From assembly GCF_003334785.1 (NCBI RefSeq), contig NZ_QOWV01000001.1: a stretch of 64,000 nt of DNA; one strand, given 5' to 3'. The stretch is from Escherichia coli (GTDB lineage Bacteria > Pseudomonadota > Gammaproteobacteria > Enterobacterales > Enterobacteriaceae). Shown piece by piece: positions 9,515 to 49,119 of the stretch (position 1 is its first letter; each line of letters starts with the position of its first letter). The notes under the pieces were generated by a model. The model saw nothing but the letters and a program-made list of their open reading frames with translations, made no database searches and had not been told where the DNA came from. The position numbers were made by a program, and so were the translations under genes.

Positions 9515-10531
9515 TTAATCGGGATATCCCTGTGGATGGCGTGACTGCCAGTGCCAGGTGTCCTGCGCCATTTCATCGAGTGTGCGCGTTACGCGCCAGT
9601 TCAGTTCACGGTCGGCTTTGCTGGCGTCCGCCCAGTAGGCCGGAAGGTCGCCCTCGCGACGCGGTGCAAAATGATAATTAACCGGTTTGCCGCAGGCTTT
9701 GCTGAAGGCATTAACCACGTCCAGCACGCTGTTGCCTACGCCAGCGCCGAGGTTGTAGATGTGTACGCCTGGCTTGTTCGCCAGTTTTTCCATCGCCACG
9801 ACGTGACCGTCCGCCAGATCCATTACGTGGATGTAATCGCGTACGCCAGTACCATCTTCGGTCGGATAATCGTTACCAAAAATCGCCAGCGAGTCGCGAC
9901 GGCCTACAGCAACCTGGGCGATGTATGGCATCAGGTTATTCGGAATGCCTTGCGGATCTTCGCCCATATCGCCCGACGGATGCGCGCCAACCGGGTTGAA
10001 GTAGCGCAGCAGGGCAATGCTCCAGTCCGGCTGGGCTTTTTGCAGATCGGTGAGGATCTGTTCCACCATCAGCTTGCTTTTGCCGTAAGGGCTTTGCGGT
10101 GTGCCGGTCGGGAAGCTTTCAACGTATGGAATTTTGGGCTGATCGCCATAAACGGTGGCGGAGGAGCTAAAAATAAAGTTTTTGACGTTAGCGGCGCGCA
10201 TGGCGCTAATCAGGCGCAGAGTGCCGTTGACATTGTTGTCGTAATATTCCAGCGGTTTTTGTACCGATTCGCCCACGGCTTTCAGCCCGGCGAAGTGGAT
10301 CACGGTGTCGATAGCGTGATCGTGCAGGATCTCGGTCATCAACGCTTCGTTACGAATATCGCCTTCAACAAACGTTGGATGTTTGCCGCCTAAACGCTCG
10401 ATAACAGGCAGTACGCTGCGCTTACTGTTACAGAGGTTATCAAGAATGATGACATCATGACCGTTTTGCAGTAATTGCACACAGGTATGACTTCCAATGT
10501 AACCGCTACCACCGGTAACCAGAACTCTCAT
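9515..10531 (-). CDS. galE: UDP-glucose 4-epimerase
   Basis: Start placed at MRVLVTGGSGYIGSH (Rossmann fold); the ORF-track 14-aa extension was rejected; 338 aa. Confidence 0.93.
   Translation of the reverse strand: MRVLVTGGSGYIGSHTCVQLLQNGHDVIILDNLCNSKRSVLPVIERLGGKHPTFVEGDIRNEALMTEILHDHAIDTVIHFAGLKAVGESVQKPLEYYDNNVNGTLRLISAMRAANVKNFIFSSSATVYGDQPKIPYVESFPTGTPQSPYGKSKLMVEQILTDLQKAQPDWSIALLRYFNPVGAHPSGDMGEDPQGIPNNLMPYIAQVAVGRRDSLAIFGNDYPTEDGTGVRDYIHVMDLADGHVVAMEKLANKPGVHIYNLGAGVGNSVLDVVNAFSKACGKPVNYHFAPRREGDLPAYWADASKADRELNWRVTRTLDEMAQDTWHWQSRHPQGYPD
10497..10512. promoter_or_regulatory. gal internal operator OI (GalR/GalS)
   Basis: atgtaaccgctaccac is the reverse complement of GTGGTAGCGGTTACAT, inside the galE 5' coding region. 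Confidence 0.7.
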
Positions 10532-10609
10532 AATTCGCTCCATTAGGCTTATGGTATGAAATAACCATAGCATAACAAAGATGCGAAAAGTGTGACATGG
10601 AATAAATTA

Positions 10610-10625
10610 GTGGAATCGTTTACAC
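10610..10625. promoter_or_regulatory. gal external operator OE (GalR/GalS), with adjacent CRP site
   Basis: gtggaatcgtttacac upstream of galE; a tgtga CRP half-site lies at about 10591-10595. Confidence 0.7.
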
Positions 10626-10791
10626 AAGAATTTAGCCGTTTTTTATGCGCGATTAAGTGATTATAAAACAGAGGGTTTATGAATGATTGCGCTTTTTATC
10701 TGAAAAAAGACGCGGTTTCATGCCTGCATGCGTCGAACCGTTGGCCGGAGAGGGCGCTAAGGCCGCCTCCGGCAAGGTCAGCACTACCGAC

Positions 10792-12264
10792 TCAATATAT
10801 TTTTGTCAGCACATAGCGATAGAGTCCACCGTCCGGCACGAACTCAAGACGATGGGTAATACAGGCAGGCGCATCTTCAGCGTGGTGCGAAACAAACAAC
10901 AATTGCGTTTCACCTTCGCTAATCAGCACATCAACAAAACGGCGGATAAGCTGGCGATTCAGCGGATCAAGCCCCTGTAGTGGTTCATCGAGAATAAGCA
11001 ACGTCGGATGTTTCACCAGTGCGCGGACAATCAGCGCCAGACGCTGCTGTCCCCAGGAAAGACTATGGAACGGAGCGTCAGCCGTGCGTTTATCAATGCC
11101 GAGAATATCCAGCCACTGCTGCACCAGTTTTTGCTGGCGATCCGAAACGGCCTGATAAATGCCAATCGAATCAAAATAGCCAGAAAGAATCACATTACGC
11201 ACGGTAGTGCTGACCCGGTAATCCAGATGCAAACTACTGCTGACGTAACCGATATGCTTTTTGATATCCCAGATGGTTTCGCCGCTGCCGCGACGTCGTC
11301 CGAAAAGCGTCAAATCGTTGCTGTAACCTTGCGGATGATCGCCAGTAACCAGGCTTAATAACGTCGATTTTCCTGCACCATTTGGCCCGACAATTTGCCA
11401 GTGTTCGCCTGGATTCACCTGCCAGCTAAGGTTATTAAGAATGGGGCGATCGTTATAAGAAACCACGCCATTGTTCAGCACAATGCGCGGTTCGTTGGCG
11501 GGTAAGGCGTGACGTGCTGAAGGTTCATCCGGCTCCGGCAGTTGCACACCTTCAAGCTGTTCACTATGCGCCAGTTGCGCGACGAGTGCTTGTTGGAGCA
11601 GTTCCTCTTTAGCGCCAGTTTCCGCTAACGTGCAATCCGCCAGCACGCCAGCAAACTGGACAAACTCCGGGATCTCATCGAAGCGATTGAGCACCAGTAC
11701 CAGAGTAATACCGGACTGATGTAACGAGGCGAGTCGCTCAGCCAGCTGCTGACGTGAGGCAACATCCAGGCCATCGAACGGCTCATCAAGAATCAACAAG
11801 TCAGGCTCCGACATCAGCGCCTGACACAGCAGGGTTTTTCGCGTCTCGCCAGTGGAAAGGTATTTAAAGCGTCGGTCGAGGAGGGCGGTAATACCGAACT
11901 GCTGCGCCAGTTGCATGCAACGCGGTGCATCCTTTACTTCATCCTGAATGATCTCAGCCGTAGTGCGTCCGGTGTCATCTTCGCCAGGGCCGAGCATATC
12001 GGTGTTATTCCGCTGCCATTCGTCGCTGACGAGTTTTTGCAATTGCTCGAAGGAGAGACGAGTGATGTGGGAAAACTGGCTTTGCCGTTCACCTTTCAAA
12101 AGCGGAAGTTCCCCCGCCAGCGCGCGGGCCAGGGCCGATTTCCCGCTTCCATTCGAACCGACAAACGCCCAACTATCACCCGCGTTTAACGTTAGCTGAG
12201 GCAATTGCAGCGTTTTTGTGTCGCTAAGACGAAACGTGCCTTGCAAAATTTGCAACGATGACAT
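10792..12264 (-). CDS. modF: Fused double-NBD ABC ATPase ModF
   Basis: Two Walker A motifs (GSNGSGKS and GPNGAGKS) in one polypeptide; start placed at MSSLQILQ; 490 aa. Confidence 0.9.
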   Translation of the reverse strand: MSSLQILQGTFRLSDTKTLQLPQLTLNAGDSWAFVGSNGSGKSALARALAGELPLLKGERQSQFSHITRLSFEQLQKLVSDEWQRNNTDMLGPGEDDTGRTTAEIIQDEVKDAPRCMQLAQQFGITALLDRRFKYLSTGETRKTLLCQALMSEPDLLILDEPFDGLDVASRQQLAERLASLHQSGITLVLVLNRFDEIPEFVQFAGVLADCTLAETGAKEELLQQALVAQLAHSEQLEGVQLPEPDEPSARHALPANEPRIVLNNGVVSYNDRPILNNLSWQVNPGEHWQIVGPNGAGKSTLLSLVTGDHPQGYSNDLTLFGRRRGSGETIWDIKKHIGYVSSSLHLDYRVSTTVRNVILSGYFDSIGIYQAVSDRQQKLVQQWLDILGIDKRTADAPFHSLSWGQQRLALIVRALVKHPTLLILDEPLQGLDPLNRQLIRRFVDVLISEGETQLLFVSHHAEDAPACITHRLEFVPDGGLYRYVLTKIY

Positions 12265-12331
12265 TTTATATCCCACTTTGTGCAGCGATTACTGACAGGG
12301 ATACGTGTTTCATAACAAATTGTCAACACGC

Positions 12332-13120
12332 TTAGCACAGCGTGGCGATAATCACGCTGTCGGCATTAAAGTAGGCCGTGACATTCTGTCCTTGCTGAAG
12401 AGAAGTCGCTTCATTTACCGGCACTGTGGCGCACAGTGTTTGCCCGTCGGGTAGCGCCATTAATACTTCGCACTGCTCTGCGCCGCGCTCAATATGACTA
12501 ATAATACCCGGTAATTGGTTGTCAGCGTTTTGCGCGACCGCCTCGTCCTGAGTAATACCTACCCACGGCGCTTTTAGCAATATCAACACTTCTTTGCCTT
12601 CATCCAGCCCCAGACGCGCGCCGCTTTGTGCGGTAATTGCGACTTTCAGGCGTGTTTTTCCGTCAGCCAGTAAGACATCAACATGCTGTTGAACGTCATC
12701 ATGATCGCGGGCGGTGATGGTACCGAACCACTGGTTACGGGCGCTGGTTTGCAGTGAAAAACGTGAGATCGCGGCCAGCAGGCTGTTCAGCGGCAGGGCG
12801 TCATCGTCACTTAACACATCAAAGGCTTTTTGCTGGATTTGCGCCAGTAAGTCATAGAGCTGAATCAGTCGCTGACCATAGCGGGTCAGTACTGCGCCGC
12901 CGCCACCTTTACCGCCTGTTGCGCGCTCGACCAGAATATGCTCACTTAACTGATTCATCTCGTTAATGGCATCCCAGGCGCTTTTATAGCTAATACCGGC
13001 ATCTTTCGCTCCCTGGCTAATGGAACCGGAAAGCGCAATGTGTTTTAGTAGCGAAATGCGGCGCGGGTCGGCGAATAATTTTTGTTGGAGCTTAAGGGTG
13101 AGAAGGATTTCGGCCTGCAT
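12332..13120 (-). CDS. modE: Molybdate-responsive transcriptional regulator ModE
   Basis: 262-aa ORF with an N-terminal HTH and a C-terminal tandem Mop domain. Confidence 0.93.
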   Translation of the reverse strand: MQAEILLTLKLQQKLFADPRRISLLKHIALSGSISQGAKDAGISYKSAWDAINEMNQLSEHILVERATGGKGGGGAVLTRYGQRLIQLYDLLAQIQQKAFDVLSDDDALPLNSLLAAISRFSLQTSARNQWFGTITARDHDDVQQHVDVLLADGKTRLKVAITAQSGARLGLDEGKEVLILLKAPWVGITQDEAVAQNADNQLPGIISHIERGAEQCEVLMALPDGQTLCATVPVNEATSLQQGQNVTAYFNADSVIIATLC

Positions 13121-13230
13121 AACAATGTCCTGGCAAAAGTCTTATTGTGACGGAAAACGAACGCCACGCAAAGCTGACCGCACAAAAGGGGAGTGCTTTT
13201 CTGTGCTTAGCGGTTAGAATAGTCTCATGA

Positions 13231-13398
<168 letters not shown>

Positions 13399-13405
13399 TT
13401 CCCTG

Positions 13406-13436
13406 AATGCCCGCTTAGTCGGGCATTTTCTTTTTC
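13406..13436 (+). terminator. Rho-independent terminator after acrZ
   Basis: aatgccc/gggcatt hairpin followed by ttttcttttt. Confidence 0.75.
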
Positions 13437-13521
13437 TCAACTTCCTGCTTTTCCTGCCGATATTTTTTCTTATCTACCTCACAAAGGTTAGCAATAACTG
13501 CTGGGAAAATTCCGAGTTAGT

Positions 13522-13545
13522 CGTTATATTGTCGCCTACATAACG
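13522..13545. promoter_or_regulatory. ModE operator at the modA promoter
   Basis: cgttatattgtcgcctacataacg inverted repeat about 20 bp upstream of the modA ATG. Confidence 0.7.
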
Positions 13546-13564
13546 TTACATTAAGGGGTTACCA

Positions 13565-14338
13565 ATGGCTCGTAAATGGTTGAACTTGTTTGCCGGGGCG
13601 GCACTCTCTTTCGCTGTTGCTGGCAATGCACTGGCAGATGAAGGGAAAATCACGGTGTTCGCCGCCGCATCACTGACTAACGCAATGCAGGACATTGCTA
13701 CGCAGTTTAAAAAAGAGAAAGGCGTGGATGTGGTTTCTTCTTTCGCTTCGTCATCTACTCTCGCCCGTCAGATTGAAGCGGGTGCGCCTGCGGATCTGTT
13801 TATTTCTGCCGATCAGAAATGGATGGATTATGCGGTTGATAAAAAAGCGATCGATACAGCTACGCGTCAGACACTGCTCGGCAATAGCCTGGTCGTTGTA
13901 GCACCGAAAGCCAGCGTGCAGAAAGATTTCACCATCGACAGCAAAACCAACTGGACTTCACTGCTGAATGGCGGTCGCCTGGCGGTTGGCGATCCGGAAC
14001 ATGTTCCCGCTGGCATTTATGCAAAAGAAGCACTGCAAAAACTGGGCGCATGGGATACGCTCTCTCCGAAACTGGCCCCAGCGGAAGATGTTCGTGGGGC
14101 GCTGGCGCTGGTCGAACGTAACGAAGCGCCTCTGGGCATTGTCTACGGTTCTGACGCAGTTGCCAGCAAAGGGGTAAAAGTGGTTGCCACCTTCCCGGAA
14201 GATTCACATAAAAAAGTGGAATATCCGGTTGCTGTTGTGGAAGGGCATAACAATGCGACAGTGAAAGCATTTTATGATTATCTGAAGGGACCGCAGGCAG
14301 CGGAAATCTTTAAACGTTACGGATTTACAATCAAGTAA
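13565..14338 (+). CDS. modA: Molybdate ABC transporter periplasmic binding protein
   Basis: 257-aa ORF with a signal peptide. Confidence 0.95.
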   Translation: MARKWLNLFAGAALSFAVAGNALADEGKITVFAAASLTNAMQDIATQFKKEKGVDVVSSFASSSTLARQIEAGAPADLFISADQKWMDYAVDKKAIDTATRQTLLGNSLVVVAPKASVQKDFTIDSKTNWTSLLNGGRLAVGDPEHVPAGIYAKEALQKLGAWDTLSPKLAPAEDVRGALALVERNEAPLGIVYGSDAVASKGVKVVATFPEDSHKKVEYPVAVVEGHNNATVKAFYDYLKGPQAAEIFKRYGFTIK

Positions 14339-15027
14339 TGATACTGACCGATCCAGAATGGCAGGCAGTTTTATTAAGCCTGAAAGTTTCTTCCCTGGCT
14401 GTGCTGTTTAGCCTGCCGTTTGGGATCTTTTTTGCCTGGTTACTGGTGCGTTGCACGTTTCCGGGCAAAGCTCTGCTCGACAGCGTACTGCATCTACCGC
14501 TGGTGTTACCGCCCGTGGTCGTCGGTTACTTATTATTAGTTTCGATGGGACGGCGCGGATTTATCGGTGAACGTCTGTATGACTGGTTTGGTATTACCTT
14601 CGCCTTTAGCTGGCGCGGCGCGGTTCTCGCTGCCGCCGTCATGTCGTTTCCGCTGATGGTGCGGGCAATTCGTCTGGCGCTGGAAGGGGTTGATGTCAAA
14701 CTGGAACAGGCCGCAAGAACACTGGGGGCCGGGCGCTGGCGCGTTTTCTTTACTATCACGTTACCGCTGACCTTACCGGGAATTATTGTTGGTACGGTAC
14801 TGGCTTTTGCTCGTTCTCTCGGTGAGTTTGGTGCAACCATCACCTTTGTGTCGAACATTCCTGGTGAAACGCGAACCATTCCTTCTGCCATGTATACCCT
14901 GATCCAGACCCCCGGCGGGGAAAGTGGAGCGGCGAGACTGTGCATTATTTCTATTGCGCTGGCGATGATCTCCCTGTTGATTTCAGAATGGCTGGCCAGA
15001 ATCAGCCGTGAACGGGCGGGGCGCTAA
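14338..15027 (+). CDS. modB: Molybdate ABC transporter permease
   Basis: 229-aa membrane ORF; stop/start overlap with modA. Confidence 0.95.
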
Positions 15028-15029
15028 TC

Positions 15030-16088
15030 ATGCTGGAACTGAATTTTTCCCAGACGTTGGGCAACCATTGCCTGACTATTAATGAAACGCTGCCCGCCAA
15101 TGGCATCACTGCTATCTTTGGCGTCTCCGGTGCCGGAAAAACTTCGCTGATTAACGCCATCAGTGGACTGACGCGCCCGCAAAAAGGGCGGATTGTCCTC
15201 AATGGGCGGGTACTAAATGATGCCGAAAAAGGTATCTGCCTGACGCCGGAAAAGCGTCGCGTTGGCTATGTTTTTCAGGATGCGCGGCTGTTCCCGCATT
15301 ACAAAGTGCGTGGCAATCTGCGCTACGGCATGTCGAAAAGTATGGTCGATCAGTTCGATAAGCTGGTGGCGCTTTTAGGCATTGAACCGTTGCTTGACCG
15401 TTTACCAGGCAGCCTGTCCGGAGGCGAAAAACAGCGCGTGGCGATTGGTCGGGCTTTGCTGACAGCACCGGAATTGCTGTTGCTGGATGAACCGCTGGCG
15501 TCACTGGATATTCCGCGTAAACGCGAACTGTTGCCTTATCTGCAACGGCTGACACGGGAAATCAACATTCCGATGTTGTATGTCAGCCATTCGCTGGATG
15601 AGATCCTCCATCTGGCAGACAGAGTGATGGTACTGGAAAACGGTCAGGTGAAAGCCTTTGGCGCGCTGGAGGAAGTGTGGGGCAGTAGCGTGATGAATCC
15701 GTGGCTGCCGAAAGAGCAACAAAGTAGCATTCTGAAAGTGACGGTGCTTGAGCATCATCCGCATTACGCGATGACCGCGCTGGCGCTGGGCGATCAGCAT
15801 TTGTGGGTCAATAAGCTGGACGAACCGCTGCAAGCTGCGCTACGTATCCGCATTCAGGCTTCCGATGTTTCTCTGGTTTTACAACCGCCGCAGCAAACCA
15901 GCATTCGTAACGTATTGCGGGCAAAAGTTGTTAATAGTTATGACGACAACGGCCAGGTGGAAGTGGAACTGGAAGTCGGCGGTAAAACGCTGTGGGCGCG
16001 TATCAGCCCGTGGGCCAGGGATGAACTGGCGATCAAACCTGGCCTGTGGCTGTACGCGCAAATTAAAAGTGTGTCGATAACCGCCTGA
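15030..16088 (+). CDS. modC: Molybdate ABC transporter ATPase
   Basis: 352-aa ORF with Walker [10 protein letters not shown]. Confidence 0.95.
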
Positions 16089-43105: not shown

Positions 43106-43516
43106 ATGAAGTGGCAACAACGTGTTCGTGTCGCAACGGGTCTAAGTTGCTGGCAGATTATGTTGCATTTACTGGTAGTGGCGCTGCTGGTGGTGGGCTG
43201 GATGAGTAAGACTCTGGTTCACGTCGGCGTGGGATTATGCGCACTGTATTGTGTCACGGTAGTGATGATGCTGGTGTTTCAGCGCCACCCCGAGCAACGC
43301 TGGCGTGAGGTGGCAGACGTGCTGGAAGAGCTGACCACGACCTGGTATTTTGGCGCAGCGCTGATTGTGCTGTGGCTGTTGTCCCGCGTTCTGGAAAACA
43401 ACTTTTTGCTGGCAATTGCAGGGCTGGCAATCCTTGCCGGCCCGGCGGTAGTGTCTTTGCTGGCGAAAGATAAGAAGTTACATCACCTTACGTCTAAACA
43501 TCGCGTACGCCGCTGA
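43106..43516 (+). CDS. ybhQ: Inner membrane protein
   Basis: 136-aa ORF with four predicted TM segments. Confidence 0.8.
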
Positions 43517-44584
43517 CCCTGTCGTGGCCGTTATCACCAGTAGCGGCCACAAACTATTCCACACAATATCCAGACTCGCATCCTTCAAATAAATCTGCTT
43601 GGTAATGTCCGTAAAGTGGCGAATAGGGTTAATCCACGTCAGGTTTTGCAGCCATACCGGCATGTTTTCCACCGGAGAAACGTAACCGGAAAGGAGAATG
43701 GCGGGCATCATAAAGACAAACACGCCGATAAACGCCTGCTGTTGTGTTGAACAGAGTGATGAAATCAACAGACCGAATCCCACCAGCGATAAACCATAAA
43801 TCACCATCGTAAAGTAGAACAGCGCCAGCGATCCGGCGAAGGGGATTTGATACGCCCAGATACCAATCGCCAGCACAATGGTGGCCTGGAAGGTGGCGAC
43901 AATTAACGCCGGTACGGCTTTGCCGATGAAGATCTGCCAGGTGGTGAGCGGCGAAACCAGTAGCTGATCGAGCGTACCTTGTTCACGTTCGCGGGCGACG
44001 GAAAGTGAAGTGACGATCATTACGCCGATAGTGGTGATCATGGCGATCAGTGACGGCACCACAAACCATTTGTAGTCGAGATTCGGGTTATACCAGTTGC
44101 GTACCACCAGCTCGCTGTTGTTAGGTTTCGGTTTTCCTTCCAGCAGCTCCTGCTGATAATTTTTGACGATCTGTTGCAGGTAGTTGGCGGCAATTTGCGC
44201 ACTGTTGGAGTTACGCCCGTCGAGGATCAACTGCAAAGGCGCGGTCTGGAAGGTATCCAGTTTGCGCGAGAAGTCAGCCGGGAAACGCACCAGTAGTAAC
44301 GCCTTTTGTGTGTCGATGGTTGGGCGGATCTCCTGTGGGCTTTTCAGCAGCAGCACATGAGTAAAGGCGCTGGCGCGGGCAAAACGTTGGGTCAGCTCCA
44401 CCGAATGCTCGCCGTTATCTTCATCGTAGATGGCGATGGTGGCGTTAGTCACTTCCAGCGTGGCGGCGAACGGGAACAGGATCACCTGAATTAGCACGGG
44501 TAAAATCAGAATCGCGCGGGTTTGCGGTTCGCGCAGCAACGACTGCAACTCTTTGCGGATTAACGTCCATAAGCGATGAAACAT
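43478..44584 (-). CDS. ybhR: ABC-2-type transporter permease
   Basis: 368-aa membrane ORF. Confidence 0.88.
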
Positions 44585-44594
44585 GCTCTTCTCC

Positions 44595-45720
44595 CTAATC
44601 CAGCCGACGTTTGGTTTTCAGCCACGTCAGGCCGATAAACATCACCGCCGAAGCGATCAAAAACAGCACGTTTACCACCAGCACCACTGGAATATTCCCG
44701 GCGAGGAACAGGCTTTGCAGGGTGCTGACGAAATAACGAGCGGGAATAATGTACGTCACCGCGCGGATCACCGCGGGCATACTGTCGATCTGAAAAATAA
44801 AGCCGGAAAGCATAATCGACGGCAGAAAAGCGGCGTTCAGGGCGACCTGAGCGGCATTGAACTGGTTGCGGGTAATCGTGGAAATCAGCAGCCCCATCCC
44901 CAGGGTACTGAGTAAAAACAGGCTGGAGATAAAAAACAGAATCAGCAGCGACCCGCGATACGGCACGCCGAGAATAAACACTGACACCAGCATACACAGC
45001 AACATCGCCAGCATCCCGAGAAAGTAATAAGGGATCAGCTTACACAGCAGCAGTTCCGTGCGGGTAATCTCCGTAGAGAGCAGAGCCTCCATGGTGCCGC
45101 GTTCCCATTCTCGCGCCACCACCAGCGAGGTGAGAATCGCGCCGATGACCGTCATGATAATGGTCACCGCACCGGGGATAATGAAGTGCTGGCTAATCGC
45201 CGCCGGGTTAAACCAGTAGCGGGTTTGTACATCAATAAGCGGTTCAAAAGTCTGCCCGTTGTCCTCCGCTCGCTGCATTTGCCAGATCTGCCAGATCCCT
45301 TCGACATACCCCTGTACAAAGTTAGCGGTATTCGGCTCACTGCCGTCGGTGATCACCTGAATCGGTGCGGTGGCGTTGGCGCGCTCCATCTGTTCCGCAA
45401 AATCCACCGGAATAACCACCAGACCGCGAATTTTCCCCGCCTGCATTTTGGCGATCAGTTCCTGACGGTTATCGCTGATGGTGGCGTCGATGTAGGGCGA
45501 ACCGGTCATGGTGTGGGTGAAATCCAGCGCCGCTTCGCTACGCTGTTCCAGTAAAATCCCGACCCGCAGCTTGCTGGAGTCGAGGTTAATGCCGTAACCA
45601 AAAATAAACAGCAGTAGCAGCGGGATCACTACCGCAATCAGCCAGCTACTCGGATCGCGAACGATCTGCCGCGTCTCTTTAACGCACAGCGCCCGTACGC
45701 GACGCCAGGACAGGATCGGG

Positions 45721-45728
<8 letters not shown>
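44595..45728 (-). CDS. ybhS: ABC-2-type transporter permease
   Basis: 377-aa membrane ORF, paralogous to ybhR. Confidence 0.88.

Positions 45729-49119
<3,391 letters not shown>

Follow-up and report, generated by a model that had tools for sequence, protein, structure and literature searches.

ModF, a tandem ABC ATPase encoded beside modE in Escherichia coli, appears to form an ABC family of its own with two unequal ATP sites

Introduction

What does an ABC ATPase with two nucleotide-binding domains (NBDs) do in a molybdate-regulatory operon that holds no permease? The question is raised by modF, which lies next to the regulator gene modE in the window analysed here, a 64,000-nucleotide stretch of Escherichia coli DNA (contig NZ_QOWV01000001.1, assembly GCF_003334785.1). 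Neither the gene nor its orphan status is new, and ModF is among the few ABC proteins of E. coli K-12 still without an assigned function. Its public names conflict: the MG1655 annotation has 'ABC family protein ModF', and PGAP has 'molybdate ABC transporter ATP-binding protein ModF'. Automatic pipelines extend the name 'molybdate transport ATP-binding protein' to homologues that have no mod gene nearby. The literature that we searched yielded no paper characterising ModF. The molybdoenzyme defects of E. coli BL21(DE3), which is without modABC, modE and modF, have been attributed to the transporter and ModE (PMC3149613). New in this work are the family-wide asymmetry of the two ATP sites, the absence of the Q-loop glutamine, two motifs of the second NBD, the restriction of the mod linkage to one lineage, and the alternative operon contexts of the gene.

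The modF locus

The modF reading frame encodes 490 amino acids followed by a stop codon and starts with ATG at 12264; an in-frame GTG at 12276 extends it upstream by four codons. An annotated modF with 100% identity to the frame is present in many E. coli genomes; the counterpart in MG1655 is b0760. The NCBIfam equivalog model for ModF, NF008186, scores 981.7 bits (cut-off 459) over residues 1-489 of 490. The surrounding positions 10500-13600 likewise have 100% matches in many E. coli genomes, and at least 80% of this 3.1 kb modF-modE-acrZ segment is found in 5391 of 5426 complete E. coli genomes. Comparison with twelve enterobacterial homologues gives dN/dS values of 0.02-0.12, which are rough, dS being saturated, but which clearly indicate purifying selection. 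The features of the locus are as follows.

10792..12264, minus strand: modF coding sequence (reading frame, identity to annotated modF, NF008186, dN/dS)
12265..12331, minus strand: modE-modF spacer of 67 nt (minus strand free of terminator-like sites and of consensus sigma-70 matches)
12332..13120, minus strand: modE, molybdate-responsive regulator and upstream gene of the operon (NF007957, 509.8 bits; annotation)
between modE and modA, plus strand: acrZ (gene order)
13565-14338, plus strand: modA (modABC operon)
14338-15027, plus strand: modB, permease (modABC operon, ~2 kb from modF)
15030-16088, plus strand: modC, the ATPase ModC (modABC operon)

The gene order on the minus strand is galM, galK, galT, galE (ending near 10531), modF and modE. 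The position of modF directly downstream of modE, given in a preliminary description of this DNA, was borne out, with 67 nt separating the modE stop codon from the modF ATG. The shortness of this gap, the lack of a terminator in it and the listing of 'modEF' as one unit in a published promoter catalogue (PMC3946193) indicate that modE and modF are probably co-transcribed. A TTGACA sequence occurs in the gap, yet no acceptable -10 element follows it, and we rejected it as an internal modF promoter. We also rejected a GC-rich hairpin 3' of modF as an intrinsic terminator: it has no U tract, and its fold z-score is -1.4.

The same description had noted that modF has no adjacent permease. This holds for the operon itself, with the nuance that a divergent modABC operon with its own ATPase, ModC, begins 1.3 kb from modF on the opposite strand and places modB about 2 kb away. 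ModF might then be a transporter ATPase with its permease gene outside the operon, energising ModB or some other orphan membrane component as a shared or spare motor, a reading that matches the name 'molybdate ABC transporter ATP-binding protein' used by PGAP and JGI. However, modABC already contains ModC, which scores 640 and 551 bits with the ModC models (TIGR02142 / NF008355), and modC (chlD) mutants are deficient in molybdate transport despite an intact modF. ModF is probably not what powers the molybdate importer, and in view of this and of the evidence given below we consider a transporter role in general rather unlikely.

Domain anatomy and the two ATP sites

Pfam detects two ABC_tran domains (PF00005) in ModF, at residues 23-163 (E 1e-18) and 276-429 (E 2.9e-28), in agreement with the two ABC ATPase domains described earlier. 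Conservation of the motifs was derived from an alignment of 217 full-length homologues, comprising representatives of 50% identity clusters and metagenomic loci. The percentages below refer to these homologues.

11572..12264, minus strand: NBD1, residues 1-231, predicted to contribute the degenerate ATP site (Pfam ABC_tran 23-163; HMM envelope 1-231)
12136..12159, minus strand: NBD1 Walker A GSNGSGKS, residues 36-43 (K42 in 95%)
11845..11859, minus strand: NBD1 signature LSTGE, residues 136-140 (S137 100%, G139 100%, E140 97%)
11782..11799, minus strand: NBD1 Walker B LLILDE, residues 156-161, with catalytic Glu E161 (D160 89%; E161 53%, with N 19% and D 14%)
11683..11688, minus strand: NBD1 H-loop position N193-R194, no switch His (His in <=28%; R194 63%)
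11494..11571, minus strand: acidic inter-NBD linker, residues 232-257 (26 aa, pI 4.6; in the AlphaFold2 model a helix at 219-239, then a loop)
10795..11493, minus strand: NBD2, residues 258-490, predicted to contribute the consensus site (Pfam ABC_tran 276-429; HMM envelope 258-483)
11365..11388, minus strand: NBD2 Walker A GPNGAGKS, residues 293-300 (G293, G296, G298 and K299 all 100%)
11047..11061, minus strand: NBD2 signature LSWGQ, residues 402-406, predicted to face the degenerate NBD1 site (S403 90%, G405 95%)
10984..11001, minus strand: NBD2 Walker B LLILDE, residues 422-427, with catalytic Glu E427 (D426 100%, E427 100%)
10885..10887, minus strand: NBD2 H-loop His H460 (98%)

The motif set of NBD2 is complete (K299, LSWGQ, D426-E427, the D-loop GLD and H460). 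NBD1 has K42, LSTGE and D160-E161 and is devoid of the H-loop histidine, and the catalytic glutamate is kept in about half of the homologues, so that by these motifs the ModF family has one consensus and one degenerate ATP site. In some family members (P0157, P0212, P0263) the P-loop of NBD1 is wholly lost. Several heterodimeric and single-chain ABC proteins likewise pair a consensus with a degenerate site.

An AlphaFold2 model of ModF, built with 46 diverse homologues, has a pLDDT of 92.3 and a pTM of 0.91. It shows the two NBDs, a connecting helix (219-239) and loop between them, and no additional domain. The protein contains no hydrophobic segment: its maximal Kyte-Doolittle value over 19 residues is 1.21, compared to 2.25 in ModB. 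It has a pI of 5.4 and four cysteines.

Placement among ABC ATPases

Scored singly, each ModF NBD exceeds the threshold of the ModF model only. The next-best NCBIfam models, with the Zn importer ATPase AztA first and ABC-F ribosomal protection proteins, ECF ATPases, HmuV and NodI/DrrA after it, represent unrelated classes, and all of them remain far under their cut-offs. The presence of importer and ECF ATPases (AztA, HmuV, ECF) among these models favours a transporter ATPase; the failure of every transporter family to approach its cut-off speaks against one.

We placed 57 NBDs in a neighbour-joining tree (215 columns, 200 bootstraps), which includes the ModF family together with ModC, MalK, UgpC, PotA, GlnQ, BtuD, ZnuC, LptB, LolD, FtsE and MacB, as well as CydC/D, LivF/G, NikD/E, PhnC/K/L, SufC, RbsA, YbhF, RbbA, UvrA and four ABC-Fs (E. 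coli). The NBD2 sequences of ModF form a clade with 98% support, the NBD1 sequences a clade with 68%, and the two together a joint clade with 59%. They stand apart from the clades of ABC-F (60%), the MalK group (97%) and YbhF/RbbA (86%), and ModC is distant. The deeper nodes concerning ModF are weakly supported (59-68%). The comparison of ModF NBDs with ABC-F and transport classes, which the preliminary description had named as a check, thus places them in a clade of their own and shows no clustering with importer NBDs. Judged by sequence, ModF is an ABC family of its own and not of the ModC, ABC-F, UvrA, YbhF or RbsA type. Its two NBDs are probably the product of an internal duplication.

Comparison with the individual classes points the same way. 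ModC and ModF have the ABC NBD fold in common, but ModC consists of a single NBD with a C-terminal TOBE domain and is encoded 3 kb from modF in an operon shared with the permease ModB; NBD1 of ModF scores 61.6 bits with the ModC model (TIGR02142 / NF008355), whose cut-off is 285, and Pfam finds no match to the TOBE/Mop domain (PF03459) in ModF. The linker (PtIM) of the ABC-F proteins EttA, Uup and YheS is 63-65 aa long with a pI of about 10, whereas that of the ModF family is 22-27 aa and mostly acidic; ModF reaches 157.5 bits with the ABC-F model NF000355, under its cut-off of 380, and the ABC-Fs (EttA, Uup, YheS, YbiT) fall in a separate clade. Zinc-module and DNA-binding insertion domains interrupt the NBDs of UvrA-type repair ATPases, and in UvrA large insertions (residues 52-401 and 666-779) do so; the NBDs of ModF are contiguous, and the protein has only four cysteines. 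Like ModF, YbhF (of YbhFSR) and RbsA carry two NBDs per chain, but the permease genes ybhS/ybhR and rbsC adjoin ybhF and rbsA, and nothing comparable is found at modF; YbhF and RbbA form their own clade, and RbsA lies elsewhere in the tree than ModF. The ybhF gene itself is present in the same window, at 45721-47472.

Soluble tandem ABC ATPases are the whole-chain structures closest to the ModF model. Component A2 of methyl-coenzyme M reductase activation (9h1l_K / 8s7v_K), a protein of archaeal methanogens, is 17-19% identical to ModF. The ATP-bound DppD of Mtb matches the model with a TM of 0.75, a fold match that again favours a transporter ATPase. The single-NBD orphans of S. aureus (2IHY) and Leptospira (4HZI) are half the size of ModF.

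Pfam also reports an AAA_21 match in ModF (E 2e-9), and PADLOC reports mad3 with 126 bits and AriA with 62 bits, as might be expected if ModF were an anti-phage defence or toxin-type ABC/AAA_21 ATPase. These matches are limited to generic ABC motifs, however, and modF belongs to the core chromosomal genes: 99% of E. coli genomes have it, and it is under strong purifying selection, with no nuclease or effector partner and outside any variable island. We rejected a defence-system identity on account of the generic nature of the PADLOC matches, and we regard this kind of function as extremely improbable.

The Q-loop and the motifs of NBD2

The Q-loop glutamine is absent from both NBDs of ModF, at the alignment column that holds Q in MalK, ModC, LptB, EttA and others. 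The column is occupied by S343 in NBD2 (P in 39%, S in 28% and A in 9% of the family) and by F72 in NBD1. This counts against a transporter ATPase, but it is not decisive, because genuine transporter NBDs without this glutamine exist too, namely LivF and NBD2 of RbsA. Two motifs distinguish NBD2 in this region.

11260..11292, minus strand: RGSGETIWDIK, residues 325-335, before the Q-loop strand (G326 99%, G328 98%, E329 96%, W332 96%, K335 88%)
11155..11184, minus strand: SGYFDSIGIY, residues 361-370, in the helical subdomain (S361 98%, G362 100%, D365 97%, G368 97%)

In the form RGSGE[ST]IWDIK and SGxxDSxGxY, both are nearly invariant in NBD2 across the 217 homologues and are missing from the other ABC classes. 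The RGSGE[ST]IW motif is not present in the single-NBD orphans 2IHY and 4HZI; the segment SGYFDSIGIY does have a counterpart in 2ihy. The conserved patch may be a partner surface; its placement relative to the coupling-helix groove is a prediction from the alignment.

Gene neighbourhoods across lineages

The ModF family comprises 1577 clusters at 50% identity (E <= 1e-30). We scanned metagenome contigs with a family-specific DNA pattern derived from RGSGETIWDIK and obtained 120 loci, 117 of which carry a recognisable ModF homologue; these form 86 clusters, or lineages, at 70% identity. With E. coli queries, phmmer detects neighbours encoding ModE, ModA, ModB or ModC at each of the 12 loci that make up the enterobacterial cluster and at 0 of the 105 others. 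The ModF proteins of the 12 loci are 73-89% identical to that of E. coli, and modE adjoins modF in every one of them. A homologue with 65% identity is located between acrZ-modABC and galTKM in an 11-kb locus from which modE and galE are absent. For homologues with 57% and 52% identity, there are no mod genes within 5 kb. The molybdate association is therefore a property of the Enterobacterales chromosome, that is, of its gene order, and not a trait of the family, so the modE context says little about the function of ModF. The 'molybdate-regulatory operon' of the preliminary description accordingly stands as the gene order in E. coli and has little value as a functional hint.

These distributions bear on the possibility that ModF has a molybdenum-specific role with ModE in enterobacteria, in molybdate handling, tuning of ModE or maturation of molybdoenzymes, which would have been acquired locally and independently of the role of the family. 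The constancy of modE beside modF in the 12 loci, the probable co-transcription of the two genes (PMC3946193) and the retention of the mod-locus position at 65% identity are in its favour. On the other hand, the linkage is missing from the non-enterobacterial loci and from the two more divergent homologues, one relative has modF without modE at the site, and ModF contains no Mop/TOBE domain for molybdate binding. Taking the two sides together, we judge a molybdenum-specific role to be quite improbable. In work of Grunden et al. in 1996, modF mutations reportedly brought no change in molybdate transport or in mod regulation, and S. cerevisiae, which is not known to have molybdenum cofactor, keeps YDR061W, a gene that the literature relates to ModF. 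The persistence of modF at the Enterobacterales mod locus even in the case where modE is missing also fits a transporter ATPase. Against the latter, no recurrent permease-like neighbour was found in the 86 lineages: TM-rich neighbours on the same strand are rare, and no family recurs among them.

The gene occurs in other recurrent contexts. An abutting ruvC-modF pair is present in 9 clusters, with ModF identities down to 37%; the gaps range from -82 to +65 nt over the 9 clusters, as measured from crude ORF starts, and lie between -22 and +12 nt in 7 of them. A secreted protein of 163 aa is often encoded downstream in the ruvC-modF loci. In 6-7 clusters the arrangement is leuD-modF-leuB. One Desulfobacterota-like lineage encodes a fusion of ModF with the tRNA methyltransferase domain MnmC2 (235.8 bits, cut-off 136); the fusion gene is directly downstream of a mutY-like gene and overlaps its end. 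The fusion is a weak clue to function because it is present in only 3 protein clusters.

A proposed mechanism

The preliminary description had suggested a non-transport role, regulatory or repair-type, for ModF as an orphan ATPase. The separate NBD clade, the lack of a recurrent permease in 86 lineages, the absence of the Q-loop glutamine and the structural matches to soluble tandem ATPases all fit the non-transport part of the suggestion. We think it reasonably probable that ModF is a soluble, non-transport clamp driven by ATP and acting on a cytosolic partner.

In such a clamp, NBD1 and NBD2 would form a single head-to-tail ATP sandwich whose two sites are unequal. The putative hydrolytic site would be composed of the Walker A and Walker B (E427) motifs and H460 of NBD2 with the LSTGE of NBD1. 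The degenerate site, made up of the P-loop of NBD1 and the signature of NBD2, would bind ATP and hydrolyse it slowly or not at all, serving as a stable ATP-binding hinge. Binding of ATP would close the sandwich, and hydrolysis at the single conserved site would reopen it. Closing and opening could do work on the partner, predicted to be a cytosolic and not a membrane protein, through the near-invariant surface of NBD2. This surface, formed by RGSGE[ST]IWDIK and SGxxDSxGxY, would replace the Q-loop region by which transporter NBDs grip their permease.

As a counterpoint to the clamp, ModF resembles transporter NBDs in fold and sequence as strongly as any ABC ATPase does. Should the family prove to be a new class of soluble mechanochemical ABC enzymes common to bacteria and fungi, it would join ABC-F, ABCE1, UvrA and SufC as a non-transport branch. 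The local nature of the mod synteny, the one conserved catalytic site and the conserved non-canonical surface provide handles for a partner search.

Fungal relatives and a possible nucleic-acid role

The membership of fungal proteins in the ModF family, YDR061W included, is taken from the literature. Fungal ABC inventories describe the Ydr061w-like proteins (ABC-I group 2) as ubiquitous, with two NBDs and without a known membrane partner or an assigned role, and the member of C. albicans is named MODF (PMC2848647, PMC6071951, PMC6112666, PMC4692070). The lack of a TMD partner in these proteins, which are grouped with ModF, further disfavours a transporter ATPase (PMC2848647). The top matches of the ModF model in AFDB50 are fungal ABC proteins of 744-869 aa with ~21-22% identity; neither close bacterial ModF entries nor YDR061W by name are among the matches of this search. 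The fungal Ydr061w-like proteins are longer than ModF and likewise soluble ABC proteins with two NBDs.

A more specific form of the clamp would have the ModF family, with the fungal Ydr061w-like proteins, maintain nucleic acids, with DNA repair intermediates or tRNA/RNA as its targets, and take no part in metal transport. We offer this as speculation that is unlikely to be correct. The hints for it are weak and independent of each other. They include the ruvC-modF operons, the MnmC2 fusion 3' of mutY and an older database name of E. coli ModF, 'photorepair protein PhrA'. The remaining hint comes from yeast, where YDR061W displays negative genetic interactions with RTT107 in the presence of camptothecin and with SLX4 in the presence of hydroxyurea (PMC4065249).

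Genomic contexts of ModF homologues

The position of modF at the junction of the mod and gal genes is retained without modE at one of the loci elsewhere that carry ModF homologues. At L223:1960-9929, a homologue that is 65% identical to ModF lies in the order modC-modB-modA-acrZ <> modF-galT-galK-galM, and neither modE nor galE was called at the junction or anywhere else in the 11-kb locus. Relatives of modF that are not preceded by modE must have a promoter of their own.

Other homologues are found among genes of quite different types. In eight loci (L128, L136, L146, L149, L157, L164, L185 and L191) the homologue lies between leuD and leuB within a leu/ilv biosynthesis cluster, separated from both by only a few nucleotides. 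In nine others (L093, L096, L099, L101, L115, L121, L138, L161 and L183) ruvC is directly upstream on the same strand, and the two genes mostly overlap or are at most 12 nt apart. The nine homologue clusters with this arrangement share only 37-68% identity with one another. Six of the nine are followed by a conserved protein of 160-170 aa with a signal peptide, for which no NCBIfam match was found.

Elsewhere the ModF homologue is itself part of a larger protein. A 749-aa fusion of a complete ModF-type double NBD and a C-terminal MnmC2 domain, of the tRNA (mnm5s2U34) methyltransferase type, is encoded within L219:5931-9250 and also at L220-L222, and is confined to three protein clusters. The 5' end of the fusion gene overlaps the 3' end of a mutY-like gene (HhH-GPD and NUDIX_4 domains). 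Two further family members have unusual architectures: P0146 (610 aa) carries an additional partial NBD at its N-terminus, giving three signature/Walker B units, and P0246 (704 aa) has long low-complexity insertions rich in Ser, Ala and Pro in NBD1 and in the linker.

Both PGAP and JGI name ModF homologues as a molybdate ABC transporter or molybdate transport system ATP-binding protein, including those of Desulfobacterota and of further lineages in which the homologue has no mod genes in its neighbourhood. For MG1655, the curated record reads just 'ABC family protein ModF'. The molybdate name looks like a propagation from E. coli synteny.

Boundaries of the modF gene

The annotated ATG of modF is preceded, 6 nt upstream, by a weak Shine-Dalgarno-like GGGA. 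An in-frame GTG four codons 5' of this ATG (window 12274-12276 (-)) could serve as an alternative start, with a candidate protein beginning MGYKMSS. A perfect TTGACA is present where the modE-modF spacer begins (window 12320-12325 (-)). An internal modF promoter is nevertheless unsupported by consensus, because no acceptable -10 hexamer was found 15-19 nt past this TTGACA.

Directly 3' of the modF stop codon (window 10690-10790 (-)) is an 11-bp GC-rich hairpin (GCCGGAGGGCGC...GCCCUCUCCGGC) lacking a U tract, followed by a second, weak hairpin with UCUUUUUU. The fold of this region is not better than that of shuffled sequences (z = -1.4), and a terminator scan of it returned no match.

On the gal side, the mechanically listed galE ORF (window 9515-10573 (-), 352 aa) starts 14 codons 5' of the annotated start, which gives 338 aa, and this upstream start falls inside the gal promoter region. 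The extra codons are an artefact of the ORF listing and do not point to a longer GalE protein.

Contrast with YbhF

A useful internal contrast for the orphan ModF is provided in the same window by YbhF:

43478-48448, (-), ybhR, ybhS, ybhF and ybhG

Like ModF, YbhF is a fused double-NBD ABC ATPase; unlike modF, its gene adjoins those of its two permeases and of a membrane-fusion protein.
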